Assembly: GCA_008636045.1 (NCBI GenBank)
Contig: SNRW01000002.1
Span: 1-63,388 of the forward strand
DNA from: Streblomastix strix
Taxonomy: Eukaryota
Length of the DNA stretch: 63,388 nt
Direction: 5' to 3'
Part shown: piece by piece, positions 280-53,173 of the stretch
Numbering within the stretch: the first letter of the stretch is position 1
How the letters are laid out: every line of letters begins with the position of its first letter
The notes under the pieces: model-generated
Told to the model about the DNA's origin: nothing
Databases searched by the model: none
What the model saw: only the letters and a program-made list of their open reading frames with translations
Position numbers and translations under genes: made by a program

Positions 280-3200
280 TCACTCGGCACTTTTGTTTGG
301 AACAAAAAGAGAACAAACAGTTTCTGTTACATCCTCTTTTTATACAAAATGCGATATTTACTTCAATCGATTCTCTCTTGCTTGCTGTGGAAGCATGAAA
401 CCAGATTAGCTCAATCTTACATTTAAATTAGCGCGTATTGCTGTTTGTCTGACAAGTTCTGGTAATGCATCTGGAGTGACTAGGCTCCAATCTTGCAGAG
501 GACCAAATGGACGAAATTAAACAGTATTCTGTCTTGTATCTTACTGGGTATGAACACGGATACGGAACAGTTTTTAGTTTGGAACTGGTGATACTATTAT
601 GTTTACATGGTTAAATGATGAAGTAATTGTATTTGGTCTATACTCATTATAATGTTCAGTCCATACTATCCGAACCCAATCATTTCCCACGTGTTTCTTC
701 TTGTGGATCTGAATTATATTCATATATAAGTAATAATAAAATATTAATTAATTTTTTAATTAATTATTAATAAATACTTGTTGTTCATCTCTATTTACTG
801 GATTAGAAGGCCAATATGACGGAATGTGAAATACAACTTCATTTGAATAATCAGCATAATATGGTAAGTATTCACCGAAGTTATAATTCTGATCAATTCC
901 ACCCTTAAATCCAGAATGATTCTTTATTTCTACCATCCATGCTAATGATGAAACAAACGAATTAAATAATGGTGATGCAGTTTCATTCGACAATATTTTA
1001 TTCTGTTCAACTTATCCTGGACCAACATATATTATCCCAATCTTATGACTTAATCTTTCACGTAATAAAGAAAGCTAATCAAGTTATCCCATCATACTAA
1101 TATTTCTTTTTATTGGTAAGAATCGAGGTTTAATTGTGCCTGTGGATGATGATAATTTTTTCAATGTTTTCAAACTCATATTCTTTGGAGGATTAGTTTG
1201 AATGCGTAATGGCGGATGATTTGATATTTAAGGTGGGATTTGATCATTTTTCATCACAGCTTTAAGTTATTAACCACGAAGTTATGCAATAATAGATGCT
1301 GGTGATACTTGTTATGGTGAAGGTGACAATATTGAACCTACATTTGAATGTTGGAGTTCCATCTATGCGGCAGCCAATACTGCAGCAGCCTCAGCTGCAG
1401 TCCCAGAAGAAAGATTATTAGCCCTATTTTGCCCTAAATTTAATGAATTTGAATTAATCTTTGATTTAAAAGAAGAAGAAACAATGCTCACTCTCTCTTT
1501 CTATGTTCGAAACACAGGGCCATCATATTAAATATTTCCTACACTTGCACATGTTGAAACACCTAAGTGCGCAAGTAAGGAGCGGTTTTATGTAAAGAAA
1601 GAAAAACTTTATGGGAAAGCAATAATATTTTGAGGAAAAGAATGATGAAAGTTCTTTTTCATTTGTGATTCATCAAAATACTATCTCCATAATAAATTAT
1701 TGGAATCTAACTCATTTTCATCTTAATCTTCGCATTTATCATAATAGTTTTGATTTTTAAGTTATTCTTTCATTTACTCATTTTCACCTTTCTATCCATA
1801 AGATTGTTTATGACTATAAGAATTAATTTGTTTCATGGCAATGGGTGGAGACTAAGATAATGATAAAGAAGAAGGAATCTTATGATATGAAGATGACTGC
1901 AACAAAGGTAGTGATGACGAAATTACATCTTATTTCTATAAAATTGTTTTTTATTAATCATTAATTTTACGTATATGATAACAAGTTGAAAATGTAGCAT
2001 ATTTCCTTCTTATCAGATGGTCTTATTTTATCAATTTCTTTGTTGTTATATCATTATTTACTATAACTGAATCTATAAGTTTCAAATCCATTCCTTTACC
2101 AATCTTCAATTAATTTTATAATAGTACTCGAAATGGATCAAAATTTACATTAAATAATTAAGAATGAGCTGAATAATTAAAATCTTTTTTTCTTTTTTCA
2201 TTTCCATTAAATAAATCGTTATATTTTATATGTAATTATTAATATCCACTGAATTCAAATAAAGATCTTGGTATGGAGTTGTGGCTATTATTAATATTAT
2301 CATTACTTTCTTATTTATTTATATTTGCGATGAATACAGATAGATATGTAAGATATGGGTCAGCATAACTCCAAGCATAATTTGGTAAAATTTAAGAAAT
2401 ATCATCTTATGAAATTTAAGAAAGTGGAGAAAAAAACGACAGAAATTAATTATTCATATTTTAATTAAAATCTTAATTATGTGTTTGAGTTTGTAGAGTT
2501 GAAAGTATCTTTGATGAGTTTTGATTTGAATTAATATTATTTGTCTCTGTTTTCTCAATTTCTTCATCTACTTATTCAACCCATTCAATTATATTTTCAC
2601 TTTCTGACCATATTTCGTCATCTTCATTATTTTTAATATCATCTTCATAAATTTCCTTATCAATTTTTTCTTTTCTCGAAGTATAAGGCTTTAAGTGAAT
2701 TGGTTCAAAAATATTATTATAAAAATTAGATTTATTTTTCAAACTTTATTTTCTTTATTTTTAATTTTATTCACAATTTAATAATTTGGGTACATCTTCT
2801 TCCTATTTTTTATTAATATTAGTAATATTCTATTCAGATTCATTCTAATTTTGCTTTAACTTTATCATTTAAGTATTTTATTTAAATGGTAAATCAATAA
2901 TTTCCTTAACACTCTAACAATCCCAAGCATAGTCTCCAAATTTTCCATTAATAATAATAGTAGATAATGAGCCTTCATAATATTATACATTAAAAGATGC
3001 ATCATAGAAAGGATGGGGAAATAATTATGAAGGTGAATGTGAATAAGATAATTATTTTGATCCTTATAATTCTTCATTTTAACCTTAATAATCATTATCA
3101 TTTATCTTTTTCATTTTATTATTCTAAATTTTAACTGGCTATTCAATAAATGAAACAAGGTTATTTTCATTTGTAATAAACATTCGAGAAACATTTTCTG

Positions 3201-6200
3201 GTTAAATATGAAAATTATTTATTAATTATTATTAATTTTTATTTAAATTCAATTACTAAAATTTTAATGATTGTTTTAAATTAATTAATTCTGCATTTTC
3301 TATCGTTGAATTGTGAGACAATTCTTATTTAATAATTGAATCGTTTTATATTGGAATATTAGATGAATTCGGCTATTTAATGTTTTTCCAATCTAAAGTA
3401 AGAGCTGAGCTCAATCTCGATTTTGCCATCGAGTTTAAATTTTATTAAGAATTCAAAGACTGATTTTATTATTTCAATTAATTTTACTATAAAGTATTTA
3501 TTGTTTCTGTTTATGTAAAGAATGGATTTTAGTCCCTGGCACCCAAACAGAATGGGAAATTTAGAGCATCTTTTTGTGTTATTGAGAATGAATGTGTATT
3601 TGATTTAGTATGGGTTAAAGTAGTTGAAGAATCTTTTTGATTATTATTTAATGTATGAGGTGGTATTTCATTATCAACATTTCCTTCATTTCCATCAATT
3701 TCATTCCACCTATCAGGAGACTAGGAATGATTTTATTTTATTGAATGTAATAGTTATTAATTTCTGGGAGAAAATTTGGTGTTTTAAGATTAAAATTGAT
3801 CATTTTAATCATTAACACTCTCTTTACTTTATTCTTATTCTAATTCTTTCTTTTTAATTTCATTTTTCTCTTTATTTTAACTTTCTTCTTTATCCTTCTA
3901 TTTTATTCTATTCATAAATTTTATTTATTTATGAGGATTAATAAACGAAAGATTGAATGATTCCTAAGAAATGACTGGTTATTATATGGCTGAAGTTATT
4001 CCAATTGTCGCTAATGAAACTGGATTAAATTCTAAAGAATTAATAAATAATATAAAGAGAAATTGGTAAATAATATAAAGAGAAATTGGTAAATAAAAAC
4101 AAATATATGAATATAGAAAATATATATATTTTATACCATCACGCATATCTGATGTAGTTCTTTTCTTCACTCTTAATACATCTGAACTTATTTTTTACTG
4201 ATATTATTGTTGTATTTATTATTGGGATTTTAATTCTTGTATTTACTGTTATTGTAATTATTACTCAGGTGTGGAATATAGAGTAAATGCTACATGAGTA
4301 ATTCCCTCTTATTTTACTGGCTTTAATTGTGGCGAATGAGCAGATGATTATTATTGTTAATATTACTAAACATATTAATCAGAATTATTTCGTTTCTTTT
4401 TATCTTCCAAATTATCCCAAGGTGTGAAAGAGAAAAATTATGAGAAGAATTAATCTTTTAGTGAATGTTATTACTAAGTTTGATATTACTAACGAAGAGA
4501 ATTTAAGAAAGGAGGTTATGATGGAGGTTATACGAAGAGTGGTAATGATTGTTGTTGTCCATTCTTTTCTATCTCTTATTATTGTAATGTTATTTCAGTT
4601 TCACGATTATTGACTAATTATAAGGATTATTATTGCTATGATATAGATCGTTATTATTGTATAGAATTAGAAGAAGGTGAAAGTTAATTTGAAGTAACTG
4701 GTGACAGCTATATATTTGTTAATGATTAAATTGGTTGCTGTTGAGTTATTTATTATTATTTTGGTAAATTTGAGATATATTTAGGTTATCTGAACTTTGG
4801 TTAATTTAGTAATTATGGAGGAGAAGAAGGAGAAGGTGATAATGAAGATGAAACTTAATTTGATTATGAAGATTGAGAAAGTGGGTGATTTTTATCCACA
4901 TTCTGTAAAACTACACCAAGTTTCTTTTCATTTACATTAATGCTTTATTATAATGACTAATTCAAAGATACCAATTTCCGTCCTGGAGGAAGTGTTGAAG
5001 GAAGAGAAGGAGGCTGACTTTATGGAATTGATGGAGGAGGTTTTGGTTTTGCTTTATTGATATCTTTATCTTTATCTGAATCTTTCTCAATTTCTTTATC
5101 AATATCCTTTAATAATGAAGGTGAGCTCCTTCCATCTGAAGTTATACTCAATCATGAAAGTTGTTGAAATGGTTATTACTAATTTATTAATTCCTGTTTA
5201 TCTCCAATTGCCTGCTAATATTACATATTACTTTTAGGTTAATTAGGAGAAAGAAATTATTATTATTATGCTTAATTACGAGATAATGAAGCAAAAGACA
5301 TTGATTGATTCTAATAGTGAATAAAAATAAAAATTATTAAGAATAATATTTGTAAATAAATTCCATAATTATTACAAATCCAAATAAAATATATCAATTA
5401 TTAATTCAAATTTAATACCTCCAGCAATTTCTATTTTCTTTCATTGTCTTAAGTTTGTTTCTAATGTTATTTCTGAAGTAATTTTTTATCTTATTAATTT
5501 GTATATTCTAATATAATATCTAAAATTTAATTAAAATTTGAAGCTGACGTTTGAGATTCGTCCACTGAATATGCAAAAAATTAAAAATAATAATTAAAAA
5601 ATAATTAATTTACTATTCAATGTCAATAATATTTACTTTTTCATTTGTATAATTACAATTAATTCATTATTATTCTCATACAAATATTAATTTAAGTTGA
5701 AACAGATGAATGCGGAGGTAATGGAAAACAGCCAAATCTCTGCAATAACATAGAAAATAAGAAATATGCTCCGTGAATTGGTGAATCTGTCATTGAAATT
5801 TGTTGTGAAGCCTAAGAATTGGATGTTGAAGATGAAGTAGAAACAGTTGAAGGTGTTTATTACTGTTACTGCTAAGTATTGGTATTAGAACTAAATTAAG
5901 GCCCCAACAATTCAATTGTGTCTTAAATAAGATCAAAAACCTGAGAAATAAGTTTTGCACCTTGTTATGATTTTAATATGGTGGAAGGAGAAATCATAAA
6001 CCAATCAGATAATGTATAAAAACACTTAGATATTAACATTCCATATATCTGATGAATAATAAGTGATAAAAATATTAAATTAAAGTAAAAGAAATAATAT
6101 TTAAATTATGATTATTAAATAATTTCATACATCTATTATAGAGGCTGGTTCTTTCTCCTATAAATTTACATTAATCTAAGAATTTGAATTTAAAGATGAA

Positions 6201-14602: not shown

Positions 14603-15189
14603 TAAATGATAATTTGAAAATTATTCAATGAAGCTGATAGTTTATCATATCTTCAAAGCAAGATTGAGCTCTTGTGTTAAATTCAATTAGATGTTATAGT
14701 GGCATAGAGAATATTTATATTCATTTAGTTATTTTTATTTCTTCTTAATTTTAACCTTCTCAATTAACTTATATTTTAATTTGGATTTCATACATTCATC
14801 CTATTCCTGTCTATTAGGCAGAAGATAATCTTGATTTTATATGATTTCATCTCATCTCTTTAAATCCATACCATTTTTTTCATTCGTTATATTTATTGTT
14901 CAGTTGATTCAATAAACGAAAAGCACTGTGGCATATTTATTAGAATTAAATAATTTTTTATTGATTAATTCAATATTATTATATTTTATATACTATTTTT
15001 TAATAATAATTCAACGAATAATACATTCTAAAACAAAATAATGCACAATTCCTCAGAAAATTAACAAATTGTTAATTTGTTAATAACATTACATTTTCTT
15101 TCAAAATTACTAACATTATATCCTACAAAACACACATTTCTCCGATCTCTTTAATTGTTAAAACATTATTCATTTTTCTAGAAATTTTC

Positions 15190-15990
15190 AGGATGCTAAG
15201 GCCGTGGTTGCTTCTATTTATTTCTATAAGTCTAAAAATCATTTGCGTACTATTGTCATCCCCAGTAGGATGTGTAATTGGGTACTTGTCATGCGCACCG
15301 TTCTTAGTTTAAGTATCTTGCATATTTTAGTCTTTTTTTTATAGACTAACTTTTTTTCAATAGTTCTTTTTCAGATCTTAAAAGCAGAAAGTCCATGTAA
15401 AGTATTACTTTTTTTTTCTTGTTGAATTTATTATTTTATTATATTTAATAAGTTCATTCTTCCTCATTGGTTCACTCGCAAATGCAATACTTTTTGCATT
15501 TTTAGTACTATTCCATATATTATTGATAACAGTACCATAAGCATACTCACTTCAGTTATTTTTGTCCTTCATTCTATTTTTTATCGTATCTTCTGTGATT
15601 GGAACTGAAATACTCCACGCATTTACATCACAGAGAGTAGATGAATCCACGATTCCAGTATTTATTTATATAATTATTTTCCTAATTATCTCTATATAAT
15701 TATTTTCCTAATTATCTCTATATAATTGCAAACTAGATAAAAAGGAGATAGAATACATTAGTTTCCGATGGTAAAATTACTTTACTTATATAACAATCCC
15801 AGGCAAGAGAGACTTAATAAATTGAAAATGATGAAAACGAGGAAACTGGATCGGAGGGTTTAGCAGACATTATTATGGTTGGTGTATCCCAAGTCTAAGA
15901 TAATATCTATCCAAATGCACAGGATAATCGAATTCCAGAAACATTATTTTCAATAAATGGTTCAACAAATTGAATAACAAACAATGCTTG
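15190..15990 (-). pseudogene. Possible gene fragment of unknown function
   Basis: Protein-like stretches (FVEPFIENNVSGIRLSCAFG...WDTPTIIM...; TGIVDSSTLCDVNAWSISVP...) are separated by AT-rich intron-like segments. No clear start and one internal TGA. Confidence 0.3.
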
Positions 15991-16021
15991 TAAATAAATA
16001 TATAATTTATTAAATAAAATT

Positions 16022-19000
16022 TCATGAATCCCTCTCAGACTTTTTCAAGTCGTTAATGATAGATTAATCGCCATTAGAACTAAATATTGCTATAAGTGGT
16101 TATCCAGGTTGTATTCTATCACGGTTTTTCTTGGAAATTGATGGAAATTTATCTAAAGAGTTTGGGAAGTGTGAATTCTGGTGAAGAACAAACACTTTAA
16201 ATTCGCTGATGTAATCTTTGATTGGGTCTTTCCTTCTCAAATTATTATTCTTTTATTAATTTTCTAATTTGTCGGATCCTTGTCTTAATCTTTGTTCTTC
16301 AGGTCTGTTAGTATAATATGAATTATTCTTTAAGTTTTCTCTAGCAAGAGAGGCAATGATATGATTATTATCGCGAAGCATTCGCCCTTCAAGCTTATGT
16401 TTCATTGATTTTTTTGCTTCAAAAGCCTTTTTCCCAATTTTCTTAGCTTATTCTTTCTTCTCTTTCACAAACTACATTGCTTCATTTTTTTCTTATTTTG
16501 ATATCTTTGAGTTCTTCTAAATAAGCTTCTCTTATACAGCTTTCTCAAAACTTCCTTCTCCATAACCAGTCAATCCAGCTGTTTAATTTGGAGTAGAGTA
16601 ATTATCAATCCATAAACCTTATTAATAATTCGTGTTATATCCACTGAATCCAAATTGTATTCTTTAAAGATTGTTAAATGTTCCGATTCCAGGAATTGCA
16701 GGAGTTATTATTGCGATTTAAGGAGTATTTAAACCCATCAAGTTAAATCCGCTGCTAAAGTTAGGTGTTAAAATTGATCCACCAAATTAATTGTAATTAG
16801 GATTTAGCGCAATCTGAAAGTTTGAATAGTTTGCAACACCTTATAAATTCATTCCACTATAAATATTATTATTCAAATTTATTCCATGATCGTTCATCTA
16901 AATATCAGACATTCCTGGCCCTGTATATTCTTCATTTCCACTCCATTATTAAGCCATTATCTCAAGTAACTCTAACTAAGCAAATGAATATCCGTTAGCC
17001 ACAACAATTACGCACACATCACACTGTATCATAGGATCGTATCTCTCAGTGCGTGGAGGGAGTATATCTGCTTCATCTGTTGGAATTTAGGGTGTTGATG
17101 AAAGATATGACGAATCTGTTTGTGTAATAACAGAGGAAGAATCATATTAATTAAATTAAGACGAATATTGAGATGAAATGTCTTTGTTTGAGTTCAAACG
17201 GATTTTATCTGCTTCTGTTTGACGTTTTCTTCGACGCTTTGTTATAAGATTCATTTTCCCTTTGAGTGTTTTTCTGACAAGATCAATAGTTTCCACAAGA
17301 AATGCATTAACTTTTAATAACTTTTCATCAACAATTCCTTATAGAGGCCATATAGCTAGTTTTCTCATTGAATCTCGTAGATGAAGGATATTATAATAAA
17401 TATGCTCACTCCAATGTGGGCAGATAGGTGAAAGCAATGCTATGATTACATATGCATATCTTCTTAAAAGACCCATTTCAGGATTTGACTTATTAATAAC
17501 TTCTCTAAAGTTTTACTCAATATTTTATTATTATTACTAAAGTTCAAGAATTTCCTTGACTGATTCTTCATCTTATTCATTGGTTTTTAAATCTTCAATT
17601 TATGATTCAATATTATGCATCTATTATTCATACAAATGTCTTAAGTGAGTTCGAGTAATCTCAAGATTTTTTTCATAGTTATTTCTTGCTTATCGAAGTT
17701 CATTGAATATAAGTTAAACAATCTCACCATATTCTCCATTCAAATATAATTTATCTGCCCTTAATATTGCTAAATTAATCTATGAACGGAATATGGCAGC
17801 ATAAAGGAGCATAACTGTGACATTTGAGCTTGAAATAGAAAAAGGTGAAGAACCATAAGAAGAAGGACTACTTATTGGATTAATTTCATCGTATGAACTT
17901 TAGATTGAACCTAAATTTTCTGGAGTTGATGAATTTGGTATATAATCATTCATTATGCCTTATTTTTCAATGCCAAGAAAAGACCCACTTTTATCATCTT
18001 CGTCATCATCTACTAGATATGACTCATATCCAACAACAAAACAATAATCACATTCACAATCATTATCTGTTTCTTGTTAATCTTCTTAGTTATTCCTATT
18101 AACAGATTAATTTGGACTTTGAATTTAATTATCTCCTTTTAATTCATTTGATTATGGAGTTGCATTTGAATACATGGAAGCGGAAAATGCTGAAATAACA
18201 GATTTTCCTTCAAATTAACGATCAATTTAGGAATAATATTGTGGTAGTTTCTCTAAGAATAAATCTGGATCATAAGTTCCTTTTCTTTTCTATTTCTTTC
18301 TCTTTTCTTCTATTTTAATTTCAATGGCTTTCTCAAATTTCCAGTGTTCTTCTTCTTCAATTTCTTTTTGTCTCTCAGTTTTTTATTCTTCTTTTCTTTT
18401 CTTTCTCTTCTCTTTATTTTCTTCTTTTTGTTTCTTTATATCTTCAGCATTTGCAATAATTTCTTTATTTTCATCTCCAGTATATTAATAGTGCGAAAAG
18501 GATGATGATGAATAATCTTCAGACTATTCTGAGAAATAGAAAGATAGATCTTATTCTTTATTATCATCTTCTGAATCAGTTATCCGATCTTCAAAATACT
18601 AATCATTATTTAATTCTTATTCATCTTCATCTTCATCTTTTTAATTTTATTATTAATTTTTAATTATATCTTCTTTATTGTCTTTAATTTCATCAGCATT
18701 ATCTTATTATGACATAGATTAATCTTCATCTAATTAAGATGAATATTCATCAGAATATTCATCATCACTTTCATCATCATCTTTCTAGTTTTTAACTTTT
18801 CCAATATTCAGATTCTCTTATGATTTGATGGTATGAATTGAGATTCTATCATTTCTATCAAATTCATCATCTACAACTGAGATTATATTCATTACTTGGT
18901 TTTATGTTACTATCTAAATTGGCGATCCTTGAATATTCAAATTATTTGACCTATAGTTATCATCATCTTCATTTATAGATTTTTGTTTCTTTTGTTTTTT

Positions 19001-22000
19001 CTTATTCTTCTTCTTTTCTTTATACAACATTTATTTATCCCTCTTTCTTTTTAATTCCTATTCTTAATCATATTCTTCAATTTAGGAAGATTGTTCACTA
19101 AATATGTCAGTATTTCCATCTCTTGAAACTATTTTAACTTCCTAGCCTTTATCAAAATAGTCAACGTTTTCTAATATTTTATTAATAAAAATATTTTCCA
19201 TCCATTAAAGTTCTCTATTTAAAACACCAATAATATCTGTTGCATATGAATCTATATAAGATATATTATTTGTTTAGAATCTCCACCGAGAACAAACAAA
19301 CGCAATTCTTAAAGCATCACTTGGATGTTTCATAAGTAATACATGAAATTTGGAGTCAATCTCTTTTAGAAGTGGACTGTTGGAATATTCTTAATTTTGC
19401 TTCTTTTACTTTTCTTATTCTTCATCTATGATCATTTCACCCAAAACTCGTAATCCCTTTGGCTGTTAATCTGCTTTAACAAAGAATTGAGCATGATGAA
19501 ACACATGAGACAACATTTGTTAGCTCAGTTAATGCCTACTAATAACTCGGATGTCTGATGGATACCAATACAAGAATTCTGATCTCAATTCTTCAAGTAC
19601 AAAATGAGGAAGCGGTTCAGGTTGTGATTTGACGTTCAATTCATATTCCTCACTGTTCTAACTAATACTATTAATTGATGTTGATTTAGTGAATTTATCA
19701 TTTAAACTTCCACTTAGATTTTGTGTTATACTGATTCCTAATTTTTCTCTCTCTTTCATTCTCTATAAACGAAGTTCTCTATTTTGTTCAAGTTGCTTCT
19801 TTGCTTCTAAATGATCATCACTACAACAAAATATATAATCCCAAACATCACTTGTCATTTATTATGCTTATATTTTATAAATGGTATTATTTGTATCCTT
19901 GGATTATATTCCATTGTTTAGAATATGTGCAATAGGGAATAGTAACATACTCATGGCTTGATATAATTATGGATCAATTGTATATTCAGAATAATCATCA
20001 TTTGAAAGGAATAATTCTTCTGGATCAAGTCCCAATGCTTTTTCTTCTTATTCATTTCCATCATCGGCTAAATTTAATTTACATCCAAGTCCATTATTAT
20101 GAGTAAGAACTTTATCTTTTGCATTTGCTAAAAAGTTGAAGAGTTATAATCGTGTTTCATCTTACTATACTATATTTCCTCCAGTAACTTGCTATTATGC
20201 TTGTGGCTATTAAACATTCCCTTATTATTACTCATTTGTCTAATTTGCATTTGTATTTGTTTCATTTTGACTATTTAATGGAATTGATCCACCAACTGCT
20301 GCTGAAATTTATTTTCCAAATTAAGCAAGTAACATAATTTAACTGCTTGGTTTTATGTCTTATATATTCATCTGAAGTAAGCAAACTGTTGATTTATCTC
20401 TCCAATCTTACTAACTATATTAAAGAGTCCATTATCTTGTTAATCTGACCACACACTCATCTCCATATACTGACTATGTTGGTTTAGAAGGTTCAAAATA
20501 AATAAATCCCAATTGATTCCCATATTAAATTCTGTCATTCTTTGTCTATTCAGGAATTTATTTCCCTCCTCCATAATTGATAATATTCTATTTGAGAACA
20601 TCCCTCGCTTGTGTCAAAGCCATTCCTTTACAGGGACCATCAGCAATTGTTCCTAAAGTAAATGCCTATTGGAGTAATGCTGCTTTTGCTCTTTGTATTG
20701 CAGCAGCTTCAAGTGGATCTTCATGATGAATTGGAAGCCTAAGGAGTTTCGTTTTCCCACTTCGACGCTCTTTAAAGAATTCATTATTATTAGACTCTTT
20801 TATTGGATTGAATATTTTAAACTTTTAACTAAGAGATTACTACTCTTTTTCTTCTTTCTTTTAATTATATTTCTAATTATTCTTCTTTTCTTTTAATTTT
20901 TTATTTTCTTTTTCGCTTCTTTCAATATCTTATACCCTTTCTCTTTCTTTTTATTTCAATTTCTCATCTTATTTTACTTTTATTCTCTTATTCTTCTAAT
21001 CTTTTTCTTCTTTTTCTTTTCTGATCAACTCTTTATATGCAGCTAATGTTGTCTCTGCTGTCATAAACCCCTTTTCATTATATCCAGGAACATTGACTGG
21101 ACATTTCATATTAAATGAAGAATTCCATTCAAAATCTGTTGAATAATCTTCATGACTGATTTATTCATTTACTAACTCTTCATATCCTTCATGTCCTTGA
21201 TCACCATTCCCACCAAATAATTATATATTCTCTTCCATTTAGCTCAAATCCATTTCTAAAACTTCTCCATCTTAATGAACAAGCGCTCGCATCCAAACTC
21301 TAAGACCTATTGTATGAGTAACTTTTGTATATGATATCTTCTCTTTTGGTTATTTACTTTATTTAATCATTTCTTTATATACAAAAAGTTATTCAGGATT
21401 GTACGACACACAGGCTTCAACAAATCCAGTTCCTCTTTCAGTAACAACAAAATCACCAGGAAGCACAAAATATTGCATTCCACGATCTTCATAATATGAG
21501 TAATTATATTCACCCAATTCTTCAGCTGATATGCACAACACTGTATCATCATTATCATCTTCTGTTTAACTTTAATCGTCTTCTCCATCAGATGTGCTTC
21601 CATCTGAAATGAGAGATGATCTTTAGCTACTTTAAATTGAATCTAAACTTCCTGATGGATATGAAGGAGAATCTGTAAATAGATTTGATTGAAATTACTC
21701 TTTTTATTATAATTACATAATTGGAGTTATTTGTTATGATGAAGGCGAAGTTGTAGATTAATCTTCTTCATCTTATTATTTTTATTGCTAGTAAATTGCT
21801 TGTTATGAACTATGAGATCCTTATGAGTGATGACTAAGTGAATTAGAATGCGGAATAGATAAGGATGAAGCTTTCATATAAGAACAAGATAAAGTTACTC
21901 TTCCGTGAATGGCTGCTGATGCTGATGATGATGTTATGTCTGAAATTGAGGAAAAGTTCGATATTTCATTTGAAATATTATTGATCTGTTGATTTTCTTG

Positions 22001-23770
22001 ATAATTGTTTGTATCAATTAAATTTAAAGCAGATATTTCAGTTTATGAAGGAAGTTAAGTTGAAGGTGTGGATATTGAAATGAAATCTTTTTGTTAAGAT
22101 GTATTTTTTTCTCCTTTTACGCTTTTAACTATTTATTCTTATTCAATATTATTTCTATTGATCTTAGCTTCCCTTGCCTAATTTCTAAGATCCAGTTTAG
22201 TTTCAGAAATCTTTTCTTATAGTCTCAATTTGATCTCAGCCAACATCTTATCTCTATTTTCCTTCTTCAATGCTTTAATCTTCCTATCAGTATCTCTCTC
22301 TCATTCTTCTTCGCTCTGATCATTAATTATCTTTTATTATACAACTTCAGATATTTATCCAACATTCATCATTCTTCCTTTTCTACCTACTTTGAGGGGA
22401 TTAGCAAGAATACGGAGTCCAATGAGATCATTACTATGGATATCGAATACATGCAAATCTTCAAGTGTTAATCCCAAGCTTTCTAAATGAATGCATCTTT
22501 GATTATATAAATTATGAGCAGCACGATGTGTGCATATAATAATTTGAGTAAGCAACTTCATATGAGGACATTATTCTAAGTGATTCATTATTAATTAATC
22601 AGTGTTATATGATTCATTATTATCATTATTAATTGAATGGAAAACAGATGTCTGTGATTGTTCAGGTGAAGATGATGAGTAAAAAGTTGATATTGGAGAT
22701 TAATCATTTGGATATGGCATAAGATAACCTCCCAATTTAATATTTGGTTTAACCCACAAACCCATTTAATTTAATAACGATTCTGGTCTTAGAGTTGATG
22801 ATACACAATATATTGGAAAGTGAGATATAGATTAATAATTTCGAGGTTTCATGTACTTCAAGAAGAAATCATGGTGACTTAAATTTATAAGATTGGGATC
22901 TTTTTTGTTATCATCTGATGCTATAGTATCTGCAGGAATAATAAATTTATCAAAAGAAGGCATATCAATGAGTTTATGCTTAATTAATAGAAACTCCATT
23001 GGTACTGTATCAATTCCTATCTTCCTATCATGGCTTAAACACATTTATTTCATCTTCTCAGACCAAATTACTGGCTCAATCTTATTCCTCAAACGCTTAT
23101 AATCTCTTAAAGATTCCATCTACCAATCAATAAATGACTGAAAGAATTAATTACTCTGATGTAACATCATAGATCTTCTCCAATCTACTCTTAATCCCAA
23201 TTTATTTGCATCTTTCTATTTAATTAAGATTTAAAGTTATTATACATAATAATAATAAATTAATAAATAATAATCATACCTTTCCAACTTCTTTAAAAAA
23301 ATCTAGCCAACGGTTTGTGTCTTTAAATTAATATAAATTTTCGTCATTTATATCAAAATCATTTAGAAACTTTGAGATATAATTCTGACTTTTACCTGGA
23401 AAATCAATTTCTTCCTTCAATTGTTTAGATAAGGCCTAATTATAATATGAAACAAAAAACAAATATTTTCATTAAATGTAAAAGAAAAGCAAACATCTAT
23501 TAAAGCACTTGAAAATGGGAAATGCAATGAATATAGAACATTCTGTCCCTTTAGAGCATAATAATTCGCAATAACATCAGCAGTAACAGCTTCGTATGCA
23601 TCATTAACTGTAAGTGCAAATCCAGATGGTCCTCCAATAGTTACAAGAAGTTTAGTTTTATTTCTATCAATATTTGTCTCAAAATTATTATCTTTCATCC
23701 ATTTTTCTGAAGATTGCTTCTAAATCTCACGAAGAATTTTTATCTCATCTTCATTAATTGCAATATTCAT
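16022..23770 (-). CDS. Leucyl-tRNA synthetase (eukaryotic/archaeal type) paralogue with degenerate HIGH, KMSKS and editing motifs and large low-complexity insertions (~2500 aa)
   Basis: Colinear LeuRS motifs: LGLRVDWRRS, SFIDWQ, CLSHDRKIG, STLRPES, ICTHRAAHNL, VLPGDFVVTERGTGFV, GDECVVRLTRQW, QMTSDVWDYIF, LRSEFLYWYPSDIRV, SDALRIA, LLSPICPHWSEHI, IQPGQP. Two introns near the 5' end, then one ~7.2 kb exon with a single in-frame TGA at 22301-22303. Stop TGA at 16022-16024. Confidence 0.9.
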
Positions 23771-23941
23771 ATTAAGTCTATTTCTATTTACAGCAGAAGT
23801 TAAAACCAAAAATATTTATAAAATGTTAAAAATAATATTAAATGTGTTAAAAAAAGTCATATATGAATTTTTTATTAAATGAGATAAGTTTTGCAAACGA
23901 GTTTGAAGGAGATAAAATTAATTTTATAAATTATTGAATTC

Positions 23942-24500
23942 TAAGTTCAAGCATGGTTTCAATAAAGATGTTCAATAAAAATTGGAAATAAAAGGAAAAA
24001 TAATTTGATGTTCTTCGCGAGGAGATTCCAATTCTCTAAAGTGTTAATATTATGTGTGTTAACATGAAAATATGGAATAATATTTAAAAGTATATATTAT
24101 ATTTTGTTGTATTTATTAGAGCGTGCACCGCATGCGTTTTAGTGAATAAATAATCAGCATAGTTTTGTGGTGTTGAAGAGTTAAAATATCATTTAATATA
24201 TTCATAAATGCAAAGATATATATTTTATAAATGGATTAAATAATTATATAGCAAATAAAAAATTGAGTATAAAGCGGTGTAAACATGAATAATTTATTTC
24301 TTTAATCAGAGTCTGTGGATCATTATTCTGATCGTTGATGTTGTAATTTAAACATATAAATGTAATTCATAAAATAAATTATGTATTTTCAAACTTGAAA
24401 TTTCTTGTGACTTCTAAAACGTGAGCAAATTATTTTTTATTAAAAACACAGATTTTACGACAGTACAAAGATTATAATCTAAAATTGCATTACAATAATA
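23942..24500. repeat. Dispersed intergenic repeat, copy A (~560 bp)
   Basis: Shares long near-identical blocks (gagcgtgcaccgcatgcgttttagtgaataaa; ctttaatcagagtctgtggatcattat; gtattttcaaacttgaaatttcttgtg) with 27564-27902 and 45697-46250, all in the same orientation. Confidence 0.9.
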
Positions 24501-24585
24501 ATTAAATGCTGAAAATTACTAAATGTTAACAATAATAATAAATTGACGTTATTATTATTATTTTATCTATAAAAGGCTATTAAAC

Positions 24586-27405
24586 TCATTCAGTGTTTGG
24601 ATTTGAAGTATCATTGAATTCATAAATGATACTTCCACTTTTTTTATTTTTTGGTGGAGGTGGAATGGATGGAAATTAAATAGATGGGCGAGATTGAGTG
24701 TTATTCTAGGTTATATGTTTAGGTGATGGATATGGAGGAACTTTGGGAATATTTTAAGTTGCATGTACTGGTTACAAAGGAGATTAAGGAAATGGCAATC
24801 TGGGAATTCCATTTAGTACTGAATTAGATGAATGGGATTATTATTCTTAAATGTTAGATTGTACTGTCTATGAAATCATTGATTGGTGGAGTCTTGGAAG
24901 TTTAGGTGGTAATTGTGTCAATTTAGGAAATTGAGGTAATAATTAAGGTAATTAATTATTAATATCATTTAATATTCCCTTATTATTATTCTCATTTTAA
25001 TTTCTTTATTTTAATTATTAATGAGATACATCAAATTATTTCTATTTTTATTACATATTTTATTATTGGGATCTTTCTTTTTCAATTTTCTCTTATTATT
25101 TCACTTATAACTCTTTCTCTTATTATTTCATTTATAACTCTTTATCTTATTATTCCCTTATTAATTTCTCCTATTCTTTTTCTTTCTCTATTCTTTCACT
25201 TTCCTTCTACTTTTCCCTCAACAATTCTTCTTATTCTTATTTTGATCTATTTTCTCTTAATTAAATCTAAATTCTTCTTTTTTATCTTTCTTCTTCAATT
25301 TATTTTTATTTCTTAGCTTATTCTGCTTCTTTCAGCTTAATCTATTAAATATCTTCTTCAAAATTATTAAATTTTGGTACTTCAACAGTTCCTTCATCTG
25401 GATTAATACCATCTTAGAATTGTTGATTGAATAGTAATCTTCTATAATATGGGAATATATTAAGTCCTGTGGGATTGCTAGTATTAGTTTGTGTTGTGGG
25501 GTCCTGCGTATTTTTATTCGTTTTTACTTCTTCTTTGAAAGAATCTTCTATAAAATCATATGGTGATATTTTTAACTATTATGCTGTTGATTCAAATGCT
25601 GTATTTGCAATAATCTTCAATTATTCTCCAATATGTATTTGATTATTTTCATGCAATGACTCAGCAATTTATAATAAAACAAGTTTGCTTAATTATTGTG
25701 TTTCAACAAAAGCCAAAAGCCAATCTAATAAAGCAATACCTTGAATAAAATTATCAGAAAATGGAGAGAAAGGAGAATTTATTATTGATTATGGGCTAAT
25801 ACTATTGAGAGCATTTATGAGATTGGTTGGGATGCTTATTTTCTATTCAGATTCATTTGAATTGTTCGCTAATTGTGCTTATTATTCAATATTTTGACAT
25901 TATTATCTCAATTGGTTAAGCGCAAACTCAATTCGAAGAAGATCTAATTTATTTTCATTTTATTCATTATCTACTTATTAAATTGATTATTCTTATTAAA
26001 TTGATTATTCTTATTAAATTGATTATTCTTATTAAATTGATTATTCTTATTAAATTGATTATTCTTATTAAATTGATTATTCTTATTAAATTGGTTATTT
26101 TTCTTAAACTAATTATTCTTATTATATTAATGGAATTTTCTTCTTATTTTCTGCTTTGTTTTACTCCTGTTTTTATTCTTTTTCAATTATTTTATTCTTC
26201 TTCTTCTTCTTCTTCTCAATCATTGATTATTTATCATTCTTTTCTTTATTATTATTAATAATTTATTTGGTATCTATAATCCCCAATAATTCTTTATTAA
26301 TTGCTTCGAATTCATTTTCATCTCCAGCTGATGCCAATGTTATCTTTGATATTTATTACTTGGGTTTATTCTTTGTTTTTTTCAACATGTTTTCAATTGA
26401 TTCATTTAATAATTAATCTGATTAATCATCATCATCTTCATTGCTTATATCTATAACATTCTCATTATTTATTAAATTCATATTTTTTCTATTTAATTTC
26501 TTTGATTATCTAGTAATATATTCATTTTTAGAATGATCCTTGTTTTTATTACCATCTTCTTATTAATTTTCATTTATTTCATCTTTTTCCATTTATTTAT
26601 TCAACTCATTGTCATCATTTCTATTTTAACCATCAAATTCTTCAGTATTACTTTATTATTCATTCTAAGCATCATATTCTGATTCTGAATCTTTTATTAT
26701 TCTTCTTCTTTTCCTTCCTTTATTCTCAACACCATCCAAAGTTTTATTTTCTTATTCAATATTTTCTTAGTCAATATTTTCATCTCTTTTTCTTTTCACT
26801 TTCCTTGCTTTATTACTTTTTCTTCTATTTAATGATTTTCTTGATTTATTCTTATTTAATATTTCAATATTATTATCATCGCTTTCAACATCATCATCAC
26901 TTTCAATAACAATAAACATTTTATTCTAATTTTATCTATTTTCTTTTTTATCTCCCTAAGAATTCATGTCATTTTCCTTATCCATAATCATTTCTTTATT
27001 ATCTTATTATTATTGTGAATTTCTATTCTTTTAAATCTTTTAATTTTTTTGAGTCGTATAAAGTGAAGATTACTTTATAATTGATAATGTAGGAATTATA
27101 ATATTGTTGCTTTATGAAGATTATTATTGAAAATCTTTGTTTTGTTCATTTTCCCATTTCAATTTGATATTCTCTATTGTTTCATTTATATTTTCAGAAA
27201 TATTATCACTTACTCTTTCACCTCTCAGTACATTTGATACAAAATAAATCTTATTCTCTTTTAATTTAATTACTTTTAATTTGATCTTTTTTTGCTATTC
27301 TTCTAATTCCTGATCATTTGTGAGATCTATTGCAATACCCAATTATTTTCGTAAATGTTAATACTTATATCGGGATTTGTCTTCTTCCATCACAATCTAC
27401 TTCAT
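24586..27405 (-). CDS. Hypothetical single-exon protein (~940 aa); charged/low-complexity, Pro-rich C terminus
   Basis: One frame from ATG (27403-27405; MKQIVMEEDKSRYKY...) to TGA (24586-24588) with TAR=Gln. No domain recognised. Confidence 0.75.
25974..26099. repeat. 18-bp coding tandem repeat, ~7 copies (peptide QSIQQE on the - strand)
   Basis: Unit cttattaaattgattatt repeated in tandem; last copy diverged. Confidence 0.9.
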
Positions 27406-30169: not shown

Positions 30170-30647
30170 ATAATCATAAAATTAGGATTATTTTATATTC
30201 ACTTCTCTATATATAAACTAGCTATAAATTCATTAAATAAAATAAATGTTTTATGACTATCTAATAAGAAGTGTTTTTCCTTTGAAACATCGAACCTAAA
30301 TTAATTTGTGAAAATATGGAATAAGAACATAATAGATAGGACTATAATATGTTTATTTGTTAAATAAAAATAAAATAATATTTATTTATTTATTCACAAA
30401 ATTAACAATTTTTTATCTTGCAATCAATTTTTTTACTAAATCGATGAAATTCACATTTTTTTATATATTAATCGAGCAAGATTTTAAAGAAATTATTCTA
30501 AACATATAGCATACATTATATGAAACCAAATAAAATATAATTAATAGAACACTAAAAATCTTCTACACCAAAAAAATACATTCATAAATTCTTAAATTTT
30601 TGATTAAAAATTCATAGATTTCTTTACTTTTATAAAATAAACTAGAA

Positions 30648-33600
30648 ATGACGCAGCAGAAAATATTTTCACAAATAAGAGATAATAGCATTTTATCACC
30701 AAATGTACCACTTCAATCTCAAAACCATGCAAGCCAATCACAAGGCTTCTTTTAAAGATGGCGCTTTAGTAATTAAAACAGATTGGATCCATTGAATAAG
30801 CAACTTTCAAATCACTAATCATATGAATCTCATGATTCCTCATCGAAATAAACACCCAGAAACTCTTAATCTTCAGGACAACAACAATAATAATAGATTG
30901 TAGCTGCAGCATAAGCATTACAAAACTAAATAGCACCATAAAGAAAAAGACTTGGAATGGGTTTATTACGTCAGATACAACCCAAAGCTTTTGGCATTAT
31001 CACACCAAGAATAATTTCATCTTTGAATAACAAATCAACAACCAATGCACCACAACTTGATTTTTCTTAAATGGAATAGTCAACAGAATAAAATAAACCT
31101 GAATAATAATAACCTTCGAAACAACCTAAAAATTAATAAGTTCCTTATATAAATCAATACGTTTGATATCCTCCAATTAAACCAACTCCCCTTCCAAAGC
31201 CAAAATCTCTTTAACTACTTGCTCAATCTTCTAATGCATAATCTATTACTCCATAATCAGCTCCTTCTATCAACAAAAATAATTCTATTTAAAGATTTTA
31301 AAACCTCAGAGATAGGAAAATGTCTAATGCTGGAAATAAATAGCTTCCTTCTTCATCATCTTCAGCAGGATTATTACCCATTTAAATGCAAGGATAACAA
31401 TAATTGAATACATAATTAAACACTAAAACGTCATTGATATAGAATAATTTAATGAATAATATTGGGTAAGTATAATAATAGGTATAGATTTAGTAGTAAT
31501 TATCTAAACCACTCACTTTATCTCAGAATTCTATGCCTCCACCTTCAAAAACAATTTATGATAGAAATGAAGGTTAGAATAATATTTAATAAACAAATTA
31601 AATAACTACATCCAAATAGAACCATCAATATAATATTGAAACAAAGGGTGAAAATAAAACAATATTAGAACAGCTTGAATCTTCACGAATCCATTCTGAA
31701 AATTCAATATATTCATCAATGCCTAATGTCACTTCAAAATAACTTTAATATCAAACACTCACTTCAATTCCTGCAAGAATCCCTGTTCAATAATAATTAT
31801 CATCTCCTCCCTTATCTCAACATTCACTCACTCATTCATCATAGAATTCACCTCCATAATAGAGATCTCCATTTATTACTCATTCTCCATTCTCTTTATC
31901 TCCTTTTACTCCCCAAACTCCAAATATGAAGCATCCTCCCATTTCACCACTGCAGAGTCCTAGAACAATGCAGTAGTAATCACTGCAGAGATAACTTCAA
32001 ACTTCGTTGGAAGAGAAATCAATGTTATTGCGTCGCATGTTTGAACTTGAGGATGCAGAAAGAATTTGAATGCGTGAAAGAGAAAAAGAGAAGAATAATG
32101 AAATTGAAAAGATATTATAACTTGAGAGAGAGATTGAAAAATATAAGAAAATGGAAAAATAAAAAGAATTGAAGGATGAGAAATAAAGAATGATTGGTAA
32201 CAATTAACTTAATGATGATGAGCCTGTTTATGAATAAAAAATATTGGATACTTTACCAAAAAAGTAGAAAAAAGTCAGAATTGTGGAATAAATATAAGAC
32301 ATTTAATAAATATAAAATAAGGATGATGTGAATTATGAAGAACTTCATGAAGATTCTATTCTTGAAAAAGTTAATTTATTTAATACTCCTCTTGAAATAA
32401 AAGAAGAAGAAAATTCATTTTTGTTTAATAGTCTCATTTTTGGAGATGAAGATGAAGAACATGACATCATTGATGAATAGAGAAATTATATATTCTATTT
32501 TAATGATATTGAGAATTCAGATGAATCAAATGATGAAAGTGAAGATTATGATGAAAAAGATTAATAAGATTAGGAAAACGAAATTGATTAAGAATCTGAA
32601 GATGATAAAATAGAAGAATACAATGATTTGATTATGAATTTTAAATTTAATACTAAATAAGAAACAAATACATTTACATAATCTGAATATCAATAAGAAA
32701 TTAAAAATACAAATTAATTATTCAATTCAAATGAAATCGATAATTATAACTCATATATTGATATAATAAAAGATTAAATATAAGAATAATCATCACACTA
32801 AACTGAATTTGATGAATTAAAAGAGAATTAATTGGAGAAAAAGAAAATGAGAGAAATTAAAAAGAAAGAAAGAGATTCTGTAAGAGAATAAATACATAAC
32901 AAAGCAATTGATAATAAAAACAATTCAATTGACGAAATCCAACAAAATGATAATAATAGTTAATTTAGAGAAATTAAAAATAGAAAATATTTGTGGGGTT
33001 GGAGAAATGGTGGAGAATTTGAGAATGATAATGTTAATTTATCTCATTAAAATGACCAATGAAGATCACTCAATGGAATTGTCACTCCTTTTTCTGATGT
33101 AGATAATCTTTGCATTTCACATGAAGAGCTGGAAATATAGAAAAGTGAATAAAGAAACAGTAGTTAATAATTTTAAGATTAAATTTATAAAGATATATTA
33201 TTATAAAATAATGAAAACAAATCAAATTTTTATGACTTCAACAATTTCAAAACACAGAATCTTAATAAAACATTTTTATCATCCAAATCATCAATTTTAT
33301 CTTCTCCTTTAACTCTTCCAAATTCGCATTCAATTCAAAATAAATAATTAATTTAATAATAATCTTTAACTTCATCTAATAATATATAGTCAAATTAATT
33401 TAACTTAATTATGAATAACTATTTATCAAAAATGATATAGGAATCTTAAGGATTTAATAACCTTCTTTATTCTATATTTAATATGTATTAATTCTAGAAT
33501 AATTTCATAATAGAAGACGAAATAATATGTGAATCGGAAGATGAAGAAATATTGATGAATACAATGATAAATAAATAGATAGTAAAAAATGAGAATAATT

Positions 33601-36600
33601 AATATAAATATAGCAACCACAATGACAATTTACCCTTTTTTAATTCTCCTTATAATTAAATATAAATGCCTTAATTATCTATATTAACATCAATAATCAG
33701 CAAAGCTCTTACTTCAGATATAGAAGAACTATTAAGAACTGTCGCATCTTTTCCTTATTTTGCACATGTAACAACTTAACATCCATAAACACAAAATAAT
33801 TAATAGCATATGTCTTATTTCAATAATTTATTTATAGAATAATAACAATAAAAAGTTCTACTCCCAAATTTTTAATTAATTCCAAATATTTCTTATCTTC
33901 CAAATATGCAATTTATTCTTTCATCAATTTTATTATATTCTCCAATATCTCTAATTTCACTTTGTAAGATCATATAAATTATTCTTTAGTCTAATTATTC
34001 TTCAATTATAGCCGAAATGATTTGGAATTTACCTTATACACATTTCAGTTAAGAATCGGAAAGAGGTTTAAATCTGAAAAATATTGAATAAAACCTGAAT
34101 TAGAATATATTAAAGAAAGAAAACGAGGATAATAATAATAATTCCAGTTATGATCTAAATGGAAATGCAATTGTGTATAAAGGAGACAATCTACTTCCTC
34201 CTTTGATAGAAATGAAAGAATTGAATAAACTATTTTAATCTGATAGATGGCTTTGTGAAGCAAATGTTGATGAAAACGAAGATGAAGAAATGATCGATGA
34301 GGATGAAGAAATAAATGATAATATTGATATCAGTACTTAAAAATATTAAGAAGAGAATTAATATGGGAGAAATAAAAAAATGAAAAAAAGAAATTAAATT
34401 TAAGATGATAATTGGGGAGATGAATTAGATTATTCAGATGAGGATGAATTAAAAGACAATTAGATTGAATCTGTAAATATTAAGAATAAAGATAATTTAA
34501 ACAAGGAAATGGATATTAATATTTAAACAATAAAAGAAGATGAAATAAGTAATATTAATAATATAAATATAAATATAGAAGAATAATTAATGTCATGTTA
34601 ATGTAATCTGGAATTGTCTTGTGGATAAGCCTTTTTCTTGTTTTTCCCAAATAATTCTGATTCTAAAAACCAATTGAATAAAGAAATTGAAATTAATAAG
34701 CTTATCCATTATTTATCTACATTATTCCTCTCCATATCATTATTCTAACCAAATTATAACAGAAATTAGCGATACATTTAAAAAAATAGTAAATTTGAAT
34801 AATCATCAAAAATTATACAATTATTTAACATTTTTGATCCATATGATGATAATGATGAAAATTATTCTAATGAAGAATAATTATAAATATAAAGCAGTAT
34901 TTATTAGGAAGATGATGAAGATGATAAAGAAATAATTTATTTTGAAGATTTGAATTAAATTAAAGAAATTGATAATAATGATGAAAAGGAAAATATACAT
35001 AAAAATGAGAATGGAAATAAATTAATGGATAAAGACGTTGAATAAGTCAATGAAAATACACATGAGATAATGTAAAATGAAATTGAGTAATAAATTATAA
35101 AAGAAAAAGAAACAAATAAGCATATTAGACTTATAGATCCAATTCTTATAACATTGCAAATTGAATAAAATAATTAAAAAGAGGAATAGAAGATGAAAAA
35201 TAGAAATCAATATTTTAGTGGATAAGTAGAAGAATAAGAATCAAAATAGTTAATTAATAATGTAGATAATATAAAATAATAGAATAATATTGAACATTAA
35301 TAACCTTCACACATTATTAAGCTTTCTTCATCACAAAATATATCTTAGTAAAACTCGGTAAATATTTTCTTTATTGATAAAGATTCAATAAATTTCTGCC
35401 TTTTTTGCCGATAATAATTAGACTTTATAAGAGATAAAAGAAAAGAATAATCAATTTCAGATGAAAAAGGCCACATTTAAGTTGAAGAATAGGAGATAAA
35501 CAAAAAGAAGGGTTTAGAAAAATAAATTTAAATTTTTAGTGAAGACAAAGTTAAAAATATAAAGGGTCAAATTAATAGTAGTATTGATATTAATTAAAAC
35601 AAATAATACTTTAATATGATAAAAATAAATGAGGATATTAGTTTCAGTCCAATAAGTATTATTTTAGGAAGAGAAAACATAAATAATGATGTTTTAAATC
35701 AACACGAAATAATAATATAATCATACTTAGCACTCAATTCAGATTAATAACAATATTAATCTTAATAATAATTACTTGAATTGTTAAATGATTAAAGAAT
35801 AATTGATGTAATCAATGTTACTAAGGATAGAGTAGTTAATTTCTTAGTTGCCTTAAACTCTTAGTTTTAATATTAATTTAATAATTAAACTGATAAATTT
35901 GATTAAATATAAAGTTAAAGAAAAAAATAAAGAAATAAAGGAGCACTAAAAAGAAACTCAAGATTGAAAGCTATGATCAAAGAAAAGGAACATGATAATA
36001 ATTTATTTCCAGATTAATAAAAATAATAAAAATAAAATGGTGATAAAGATATGGATTATTTACAACATAAGGTAAAAAGAAAACGAAGCCAAAGCCCGTC
36101 TCCAAATTCATTGAGATTACAAAATAATAATTATATTTGTGAAAAAGAAAATCCTATTTAATTAATTGATAATATGAATAATTTAAATAATATCAATAAT
36201 TCAACATGGAATTCATACCACAATATTGCTATTGAAATGTGTCTCCATACATTATTCATTTAATAATCAATTTAATTTTTAACAAGATCTCCTATATATT
36301 AAATCAATAATAAATAATTAAAGAAATAATATGAAAATAAAAACAAATTAGATATTGAAAATCATAATAATACACAATCAAACGATTAATTAAATGAAGA
36401 TATTAAAACAAAGAATGAAAATAATTAAGATAATCATATTGTTATTGATTTGGATGATTCTGATGATAACGAAGGAAAAGATAATATTATAAATAAGATA
36501 GAAGAAAGAAAAAATAATATGAAAAATAGTTAAGATTTTCATACTGATTGTACAAATAACGAATAAGTATAGAACAATGATCTGGTTACCCTTCTTTAAT

Positions 36601-39567: not shown

Positions 39568-45579
<6,012 letters not shown>

Positions 45580-52827: not shown

Positions 52828-53173
52828 ATACATTGATTAATTTATTTTTGTTCAATCGAAATTAGAGAATGAGAAATAAAAATGTATAATTGGAAAACTC
52901 GACTAATGCTTATTATCAAAGAATGAAAATAGAGCACTATTTTAATTAATAATGCAATTATAAGATATAATAGATGGATTGAATTAATGTTAAGATGAAT
53001 TTGAAACAAAATCTAATACTTTAGATCATGACAAATCAATGAAAAAGTTATTAAAGTATACATGCAAAAAAATTACCATAAAAAAAAATAAAATGCCAAA
53101 ATTTTGGTTGTTTTGAGCCAGATCATAGATCACTATTTTATTAGTTCTATGATTCAATTTATTTATTATAAAC

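Follow-up and report, generated by a model that had tools for sequence, protein, structure and literature searches.

A leucyl-tRNA synthetase paralogue without catalytic signatures in the oxymonad Streblomastix strix and its relatives in Blattamonas

We analyzed a 63,388-nucleotide stretch of the Streblomastix strix genome (contig SNRW01000002.1 of assembly GCA_008636045.1; hereafter, the window) and focused on a long minus-strand gene that resembles leucyl-tRNA synthetase (LeuRS) over its full length and carries none of the enzyme's catalytic signatures. The gene occupies positions 16022..23770, from an ATG at 23770-23768 to a TGA stop at 16024-16022, and comprises 2541 codons once spliced. 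The window has a G+C content of 21-31%, compared with 26.6% reported for S. strix, in which UAR has been reported to encode Gln. Under code table 6 (TAA/TAG=Gln), the locus contains three adjoining minus-strand open reading frames (ORFs) in the same frame, at 16022..22300 (2092 codons), 22301..23416, and 23417..23971, while code tables 11 and 4 gave no ORFs at all within 15000-25000. In alignments, the start of the gene coincides with Met1 of its paralogues in Blattamonas and the C terminus with the end of canonical LeuRS.

Two putative GT..AG introns were placed from the DNA using three-frame translation and the homology of a middle exon found in another frame. Exon 1 (23495..23770, minus strand as are all features of the gene; 92 codons) encodes the N-terminal half of the Rossmann fold, including a degenerate HIGH region. 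Intron 1 (23436..23494; 59 nt, GTTTGC...TTAG) is T-rich and carries the frame shift to exon 2 (23280..23435; 52 codons), which is read in a different frame from exons 1 and 3 and whose ALSKQLKEEIDFPGKS...NRWLDFFKEVGK corresponds to the segment ACADKLKRE...HWLDYFPP of LeuRS. After the similarly T-rich intron 2 (23216..23279; 64 nt, GTATGA...ATAG), exon 3 (16025..23215; 2397 codons) encodes the CP core, CP1, the second Rossmann half, the SC-fold, the anticodon-binding helices, and the C-terminal domain, together with all of the large inserts. The 2092-codon stretch has no TGA in frame, compared with approximately 43 expected from its composition and 29-142 in the other five frames; counting the inserts alone, a single TGA falls in frame, and the two remaining frames have 27 and 108. 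An earlier note on this DNA, made from the sequence alone, had described a frame kept over 7 kb. The openness of the frame far beyond chance stands, but its continuity has to be qualified by the two introns, the differently framed exon 2, and one in-frame TGA.

Comparisons of sequence place the gene product in the LeuRS superfamily by descent, with the archaeal/eukaryotic type. Human LARS1 (6kie_A) matched in six colinear stretches, four of them at E 1.9e-20 and two at E 5.1e-17 (75 and 65 bits, respectively), and Pyrococcus horikoshii LeuRS (1wkb) matched more weakly. Alignment with seven canonical eukaryotic LeuRS extended the colinearity with the cytoplasmic enzyme to full length, bearing out the claim of the earlier note that the whole architecture is colinear. 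Among the 217 columns invariant in the seven canonical proteins, the S. strix protein keeps 106 and has changed 111. The structural motifs that had been described as conserved are indeed in place: DWRRS (23185-23171), TLRPE (22795-22781), FLYWYP (19576-19559), and PICPHWSEHI (17428-17399). The Pfam family Anticodon_1 (PF08264) scored 23 bits, below its gathering cut-off of 25.1.

The gene has close counterparts in Blattamonas. Our first database search returned seven matches, the best of which was a 1760-residue Blattamonas nauphoetae protein annotated as a "putative Leucine--tRNA ligase." Searching again with this protein gave 52 matches, among them two more long Blattamonas paralogues (1800 and 2379 residues) and 49 canonical LeuRS. 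All three Blattamonas paralogues (KAK2951337.1, 2379 aa; KAK2953501.1, 1760 aa; and KAK2956957.1, 1800 aa) lack HIGH, KMSKS, and Asp399. They share with the S. strix protein the derived residues G62N, T298S, D399Q, D676H, and N707L, and of the 217 canonical-invariant columns, 66 are kept by all four family members and 71 are lost by all four, many of them to the same residue.

The catalytic motifs are gone from the S. strix protein, at the very coordinates where this had been noticed earlier. Numbering follows human LARS1, and the seven canonical eukaryotic LeuRS serve as the reference. At 23600..23638, IGGPSGFALTVND is found where FPYPYMNGxLHLGH is expected, and HIGH positions 60-63 read T-V-N-D, compared with S-[FIL]-N-R in the Blattamonas copies and H-x-G-H in all seven canonical proteins. 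The KMSKS region at 19397..19444 has LGEMIIDEEQEKQKKQ in place of NGHLLLNSEKMSKS; positions 716-720 read K-Q-N-Q-E here, DPHMT or TSRMN in Blattamonas, and K-M-S-K-[S/R/Q] in the canonical enzymes. In the CP1 editing motif (21389..21433), GTGFVEACVSYNPEQ replaces GTGVVTSVPSDSPDD, and the editing residue Asp399 has become Gln in all four family members; in the human enzyme, the substitution D399A is reported to abolish post-transfer editing (PMC3017609). The T-rich region of CP1, TLRPE(S) (22781..22795), keeps Thr293, with Thr298 changed to Ser in all four.

The leucine pocket has been lost as well. Of the five residues assigned roles in it (Tyr52, Tyr54, His251, Leu594, and Ser597; PMC7229842), the S. 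strix protein keeps only His251: Tyr52 (canonical Y, with F in one of the seven) has been replaced by G, Leu594 by N, and Ser597 by Y, and Tyr54 (canonical Y) has been deleted. Because the HIGH, KMSKS, leucine-pocket, and editing-site residues are gone, the protein is predicted to have lost leucine activation, tRNA charging, and proofreading. Two of the Blattamonas copies, P0001 and P0008, differ in that they keep Tyr54, His251, Leu594, and Ser597 although they lack HIGH and KMSKS; judging by these residues, it is conceivable that they bind leucine without adenylating it.

To place the family among its relatives, we used the exon-3 piece in a HMMER search over 1.84 billion representative sequences and obtained 319 matches at E<=1e-3. 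The canonical background began at 5.8e-16, and above it were only the Blattamonas clusters (1.1e-39 and 6.7e-30), two 100%-identical short fragments of the same gene, and P0062, a 250-aa ENA contig fragment. With E 1.8e-20 and the family signature PMIWSE, P0062 is a further family member. Its first ~68 residues resemble a translated T-rich intron, and its similarity to our protein starts exactly at the end of intron 2, the position of which may be conserved between the two genes. A metagenome scan with the exon-3 protein gave 73 pattern matches, none of them confirmed. Eighteen metagenome loci found with a family-only alignment were rejected as members, all 18 scoring three to five times higher with canonical LeuRS than with queries from the family.

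In a census of the 104 retrieved proteins of at least 950 residues, 93 had both HIGH and KMSKS by a simple pattern, and only the three Blattamonas proteins lacked both outright; the remainder were P0171, with near-variants, and seven truncated or variant forms. P0171 (1064 aa) is otherwise a canonical LeuRS, with DLGH for HLGH and NMSK plus a short deletion for KMSKS; either partial degeneration or a faulty gene model may account for this. From an alignment of 26 rows and 1050 columns, we inferred a tree under LG+G4 with a quick search, including 22 canonical sequences after 68 of the 90 full-length canonical ones had been dropped at random; the canonical rows include no oxymonad LeuRS. The four full-length degenerate proteins formed one clade with a Shimodaira-Hasegawa-like approximate likelihood ratio test (SH-aLRT) support of 100, and the S. 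strix protein was placed outside the three Blattamonas copies (SH-aLRT 91). The clade has a long branch, and that of the S. strix protein separates it from all 22 canonical LeuRS sampled.

The check by phylogeny and orthologues that the earlier note had called for thus yielded three Blattamonas proteins with the same losses in a single clade. By these sequence criteria, two or more oxymonad lineages have conserved the core of the degenerate protein. The S. strix and Blattamonas proteins have the same derived catalytic-site residues and common insert sites, but their cores are only 31-34% identical, and the Blattamonas inserts are smaller and of other composition. The Blattamonas proteins also differ in being annotated as ordinary ligases.

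Much of the size of the S. strix protein comes from inserts. We counted 12 inserts of at least 25 aa, totaling 1482 aa and leaving a core of 1059 aa; the earlier note had estimated about 1400 extra residues. A Ser/Gln/Glu-rich insert of 312 residues (21467..22402) lies within CP1, after human residue ~364, where the Blattamonas copies have 21-29 residues, and an acidic, Ser- and Lys-rich insert of 459 residues (17813..19189) separates the SC-fold from the anticodon-binding helices. At this site (human residues ~777-789), all four family members have approximately 290-440 extra residues, and from the aligned positions, several insert sites are ancestral to the family. Between the S. strix protein and Blattamonas, identity within the inserts is 15-20%. 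The neighboring genes contain just as much low-complexity sequence, and the long disordered inserts probably reflect a habit of the whole genome. One neighbor, a 1814-codon frame at 39571-45012 on the minus strand, has long poly-Ser tracts, a poly-Tyr run, and more than 100 Gln residues in an uninterrupted row; like the further large ORFs of low complexity in the window, it indicates that giant inserts are general in this genome.

The pattern of conservation argues that the gene has been selected and is not decaying. Between P0001 and P0008, core identity is 68.6%, with 6 gapped positions, about twice the 34.9% of the inserts, which have 40 gapped positions. As both copies carry the losses, their duplication followed the loss of catalysis, and the difference between core and inserts points to purifying selection after that loss. 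Together with the open frame and the Blattamonas relatives sharing the same losses, these figures uphold the view of the earlier note that the frame and motifs reflect selection.

The one in-frame TGA is codon 449 (22301..22303, minus strand; …DQSEEE*ERDTDRK…), inside the 312-residue insert. We found 81 in-frame GT..AG candidates of 30-300 nt spanning it, none in a T-rich tract like those of introns 1 and 2; such tracts occur in this gene only in the 5' flank, the two introns, and two Ser-rich coding stretches. A 59-nt candidate ending in GATAG was rejected as it would break the frame. Reading TGA as Trp throughout was also rejected, given that the conserved Trp positions are encoded by TGG and that the gene has only one such TGA. 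In a plus-strand neighbor at 30312-39311, ORFs of 284, 300, 330, and 2082 codons lie in one frame and are split by single TGAs at 31164, 32067, and 33060, none of which is in a T-rich intron-like tract. A similar TGA junction is seen at 5154 on the minus strand, upstream of a Rap-GAP gene. Because the neighboring long gene carries three similar TGAs, the cause is probably genome-wide, whether errors, unrecognised introns, or read-through.

A canonical LeuRS appears to exist beside the degenerate copy. The supplement tables of PMC10703272 list the orthogroup q2001233 with the members Streblo_st9015, BLNAU_1756, MONOS_2389, and PAPYR_1880, from S. strix, Blattamonas, Monocercomonoides, and Paratrimastix. 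For all four, the best match in nr is a canonical plant, animal, or fungal LeuRS at E 0.0. Our gene reaches no more than 75 and 65 bits against human LARS1 and cannot be Streblo_st9015. According to these table entries, the genome that carries the degenerate copy would also encode a normal LeuRS, which speaks against our gene being the only one. Among the 50 "Leucine" entries listed in that supplement, none is an orthogroup of the degenerate paralogues, and the entries are silent on whether Monocercomonoides and Paratrimastix have members of the family. The short HMMER matches also include several AT-rich canonical-like LeuRS fragments, which are not attributable to S. strix. One of them, P0077 (124 aa), breaks off directly ahead of the conserved Gln in RPETMYGQTN, as would be expected were this residue encoded by TAA/TAG in an organism with UAR=Gln; the fragment cannot be assigned to S. 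strix.

We compared conservation domain by domain, setting the identity between the S. strix protein and Blattamonas, an oxymonad-only family with fewer taxa, against that among the seven canonical proteins, a pan-eukaryotic set. The module formed by the anticodon-binding helices, which include PICPHWSEHI, and the C-terminal domain (16025..17830) was the best conserved relative to canonical LeuRS. Identities were 36.5% in the family and 36.2% among canonical proteins for the anticodon-binding helices, and 25.7 and 23.2% for the C-terminal domain. The C-terminal Rossmann half with KMSKS had 22.2% in the family against 62.5%, and CP1 had 33.8% against 52.7%. By this measure, conservation at the canonical level is confined to the tRNA-binding end of the protein.

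Two segments of the protein were modeled. An AlphaFold2 model of the C-terminal module reached medium confidence (predicted local distance difference test [pLDDT] score 65.3, predicted template-modeling score 0.60). Compared with 48,161 chains, it matched only two at Z>=8: human LARS1 813-1061 (Z 9.0, root-mean-square deviation 4.9, 232 aligned; VIA) and the P. horikoshii LeuRS-tRNA(Leu) complex 746-967 (Z 8.3). Foldseek found no match for this model at E<=0.001, the best being LARS1 at 7.6e-3. The model of the CP1-KMSKS segment was poor (pLDDT 50.7), and its seven best Foldseek matches were all LeuRS, with template-modeling scores of ~0.28. These structural matches are partly circular, since real LeuRS were present in the alignments from which both models were built.

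We consider the chances about even (roughly 0.5) that the gene encodes a selected, catalytically dead LeuRS paralogue working as a non-catalytic binder of tRNA(Leu). Without its catalytic residues, such a paralogue could not adenylate, charge, or edit; its retained anticodon-binding and C-terminal domains would bind tRNA(Leu), and the bound tRNA might, for example, be sequestered, sensed, or chaperoned. The two parts of this proposal differ in strength: it is highly probable that the protein is dead and selected, while tRNA binding as the way it works is a tentative suggestion whose odds fall a little short of even. Several observations weigh against the proposal. None of the three pieces of the gene matched the Pfam family tRNA-synt_1 (PF00133) at E<=0.01. 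The domain comparison is relative and uncalibrated, and the putative tRNA binding is read from it and from a model of medium confidence that is partly circular. The TGA at codon 449 may mean a truncated or split product or a recently disabled copy. Finally, the canonical S. strix LeuRS is known here from a table entry.

The protein might still be a working LeuRS with unorthodox motifs, possibly the main one of the organism, and the completeness of the architecture from the N terminus to the C-terminal domain would fit this. We regard it as extremely unlikely, however, given that HIGH, KMSKS, the leucine pocket, and Asp399 are all replaced along with 111 of 217 canonical-invariant residues, that PF00133 does not match, and that S. 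strix and its relatives have an orthogroup of canonical LeuRS listed separately. At the other extreme, codon 449 may be a real stop, in which case the locus would be a recently disabled pseudogene or a split gene producing an N-terminal fragment of at most 448 residues. The lack of any intron-like T-rich tract around 22303-22301 favors this explanation, but the 2092 codons downstream are free of TGA where about 43 are expected, and colinearity with both LeuRS and the Blattamonas proteins extends to either side of the TGA. As the three similar TGAs in the neighboring long gene point to a cause at the level of the genome and not to decay of this gene, we find disablement very unlikely.

The principal competitor accepts that the LeuRS paralogue is dead and selected and differs in how it would act, namely by protein-protein contacts, the core serving as a rigid platform and the charged and Ser-rich inserts as docking or phospho-regulated segments. 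Several insert sites are indeed common to all four family members, including the one at ~777-789 with its ~290-440 extra residues, the inserts have been kept open with a single in-frame TGA compared with 27 and 108, and the VC domain of canonical LeuRS is reported to serve RagD as well as tRNA (PMC7229842). The insert sequences are poorly conserved, however, both between the S. strix protein and Blattamonas (15-20%) and between the close paralogues (34.9%); similar low-complexity runs in the neighboring genes suggest that the inserts may be a genomic habit. On balance, we think this scaffold role unlikely.

Two further ideas raised in the earlier note fared less well. A non-canonical role in TORC1 leucine signaling was suggested, but with Tyr54 deleted, Leu594 changed to N, and Ser597 to Y, the pocket is gone and a leucine-sensor role for this protein is therefore unlikely. 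The altered genetic code was also thought relevant; the reassignment, however, is of UAR to Gln and not to Leu, and the catalysis-less family is shared with Blattamonas, for which NCBI holds all three copies in the form of ordinary protein entries. We consequently rejected a link to the code. More speculatively, oxymonads as a lineage might have an expanding family of dead LeuRS of the cytoplasmic type turned into tRNA(Leu)-reading regulators or scaffolds, which would take over from LeuRS a non-translational part in signaling nutrient or tRNA state, the C-terminal module acting as the sensor and the inserts as the output hub; such an elaborate arrangement appears quite unlikely.

Elsewhere in the window, a minus-strand gene at 283-5151 encodes a Q/S-rich protein of 1623 residues in which a Rap/Ran-GAP domain (Pfam PF02145, E 1.2e-37) lies at the C terminus. 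A plus-strand ORF at 53153-54577 is transposase-like, with an endonuclease domain (PF03184, E 1.7e-11) of the DDE_1 superfamily.

Inactive paralogues of aminoacyl-tRNA synthetases have recurrently yielded new regulators, such as HisZ, the HisRS-like domain of GCN2, and SLIMP. The case at hand is a eukaryotic cytoplasmic-type LeuRS without any catalytic signature, more than doubled in size and present in three copies in Blattamonas. In the literature on oxymonad leucyl-tRNA synthetase and on LeuRS paralogues and pseudoenzymes, we found no description of a dead eukaryotic LeuRS among the matches listed, and as far as the literature was searched, a motif-less, insert-expanded family of the cytoplasmic type has not been described in a eukaryote. 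The Blattamonas members are annotated in GenBank as working ligases and should therefore not be counted as LeuRS when the metabolism or translation of Preaxostyla is inventoried. As a natural experiment, the family can also show where constraint on a synthetase persists after the loss of catalysis, here at the tRNA-binding end.

Compared with human LARS1 (PDB 6KID, 6LPF, and 6LR6) and P. horikoshii LeuRS (1WKB and 1WZ2), the S. strix protein has the Rossmann halves, CP core, CP1, SC-fold, anticodon-binding helices, and C-terminal domain in the same order and retains the blocks DWRRS, DHDR-like, TLRPE, GTG, GDECVV, YWYP, and PICPHW. It differs from the human and archaeal enzymes in lacking HIGH, KMSKS, the leucine pocket, and Asp399 and in carrying 1482 insert residues. 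The nearest cases described are the LeuRS-I of Sulfolobaceae and the LeuRS2 of haloarchaea, which are second copies beside a working LeuRS and do not charge normally (PMC9437257). LeuRS-I is reported still to bind tRNA(Leu) and to matter for growth. Unlike the S. strix protein, which has no adenylation motifs, LeuRS-I still makes leucyl-adenylate and LeuRS2 charges weakly, according to the same source. The archaeal copies and the degenerate oxymonad family arose in different domains of life and represent independent events.

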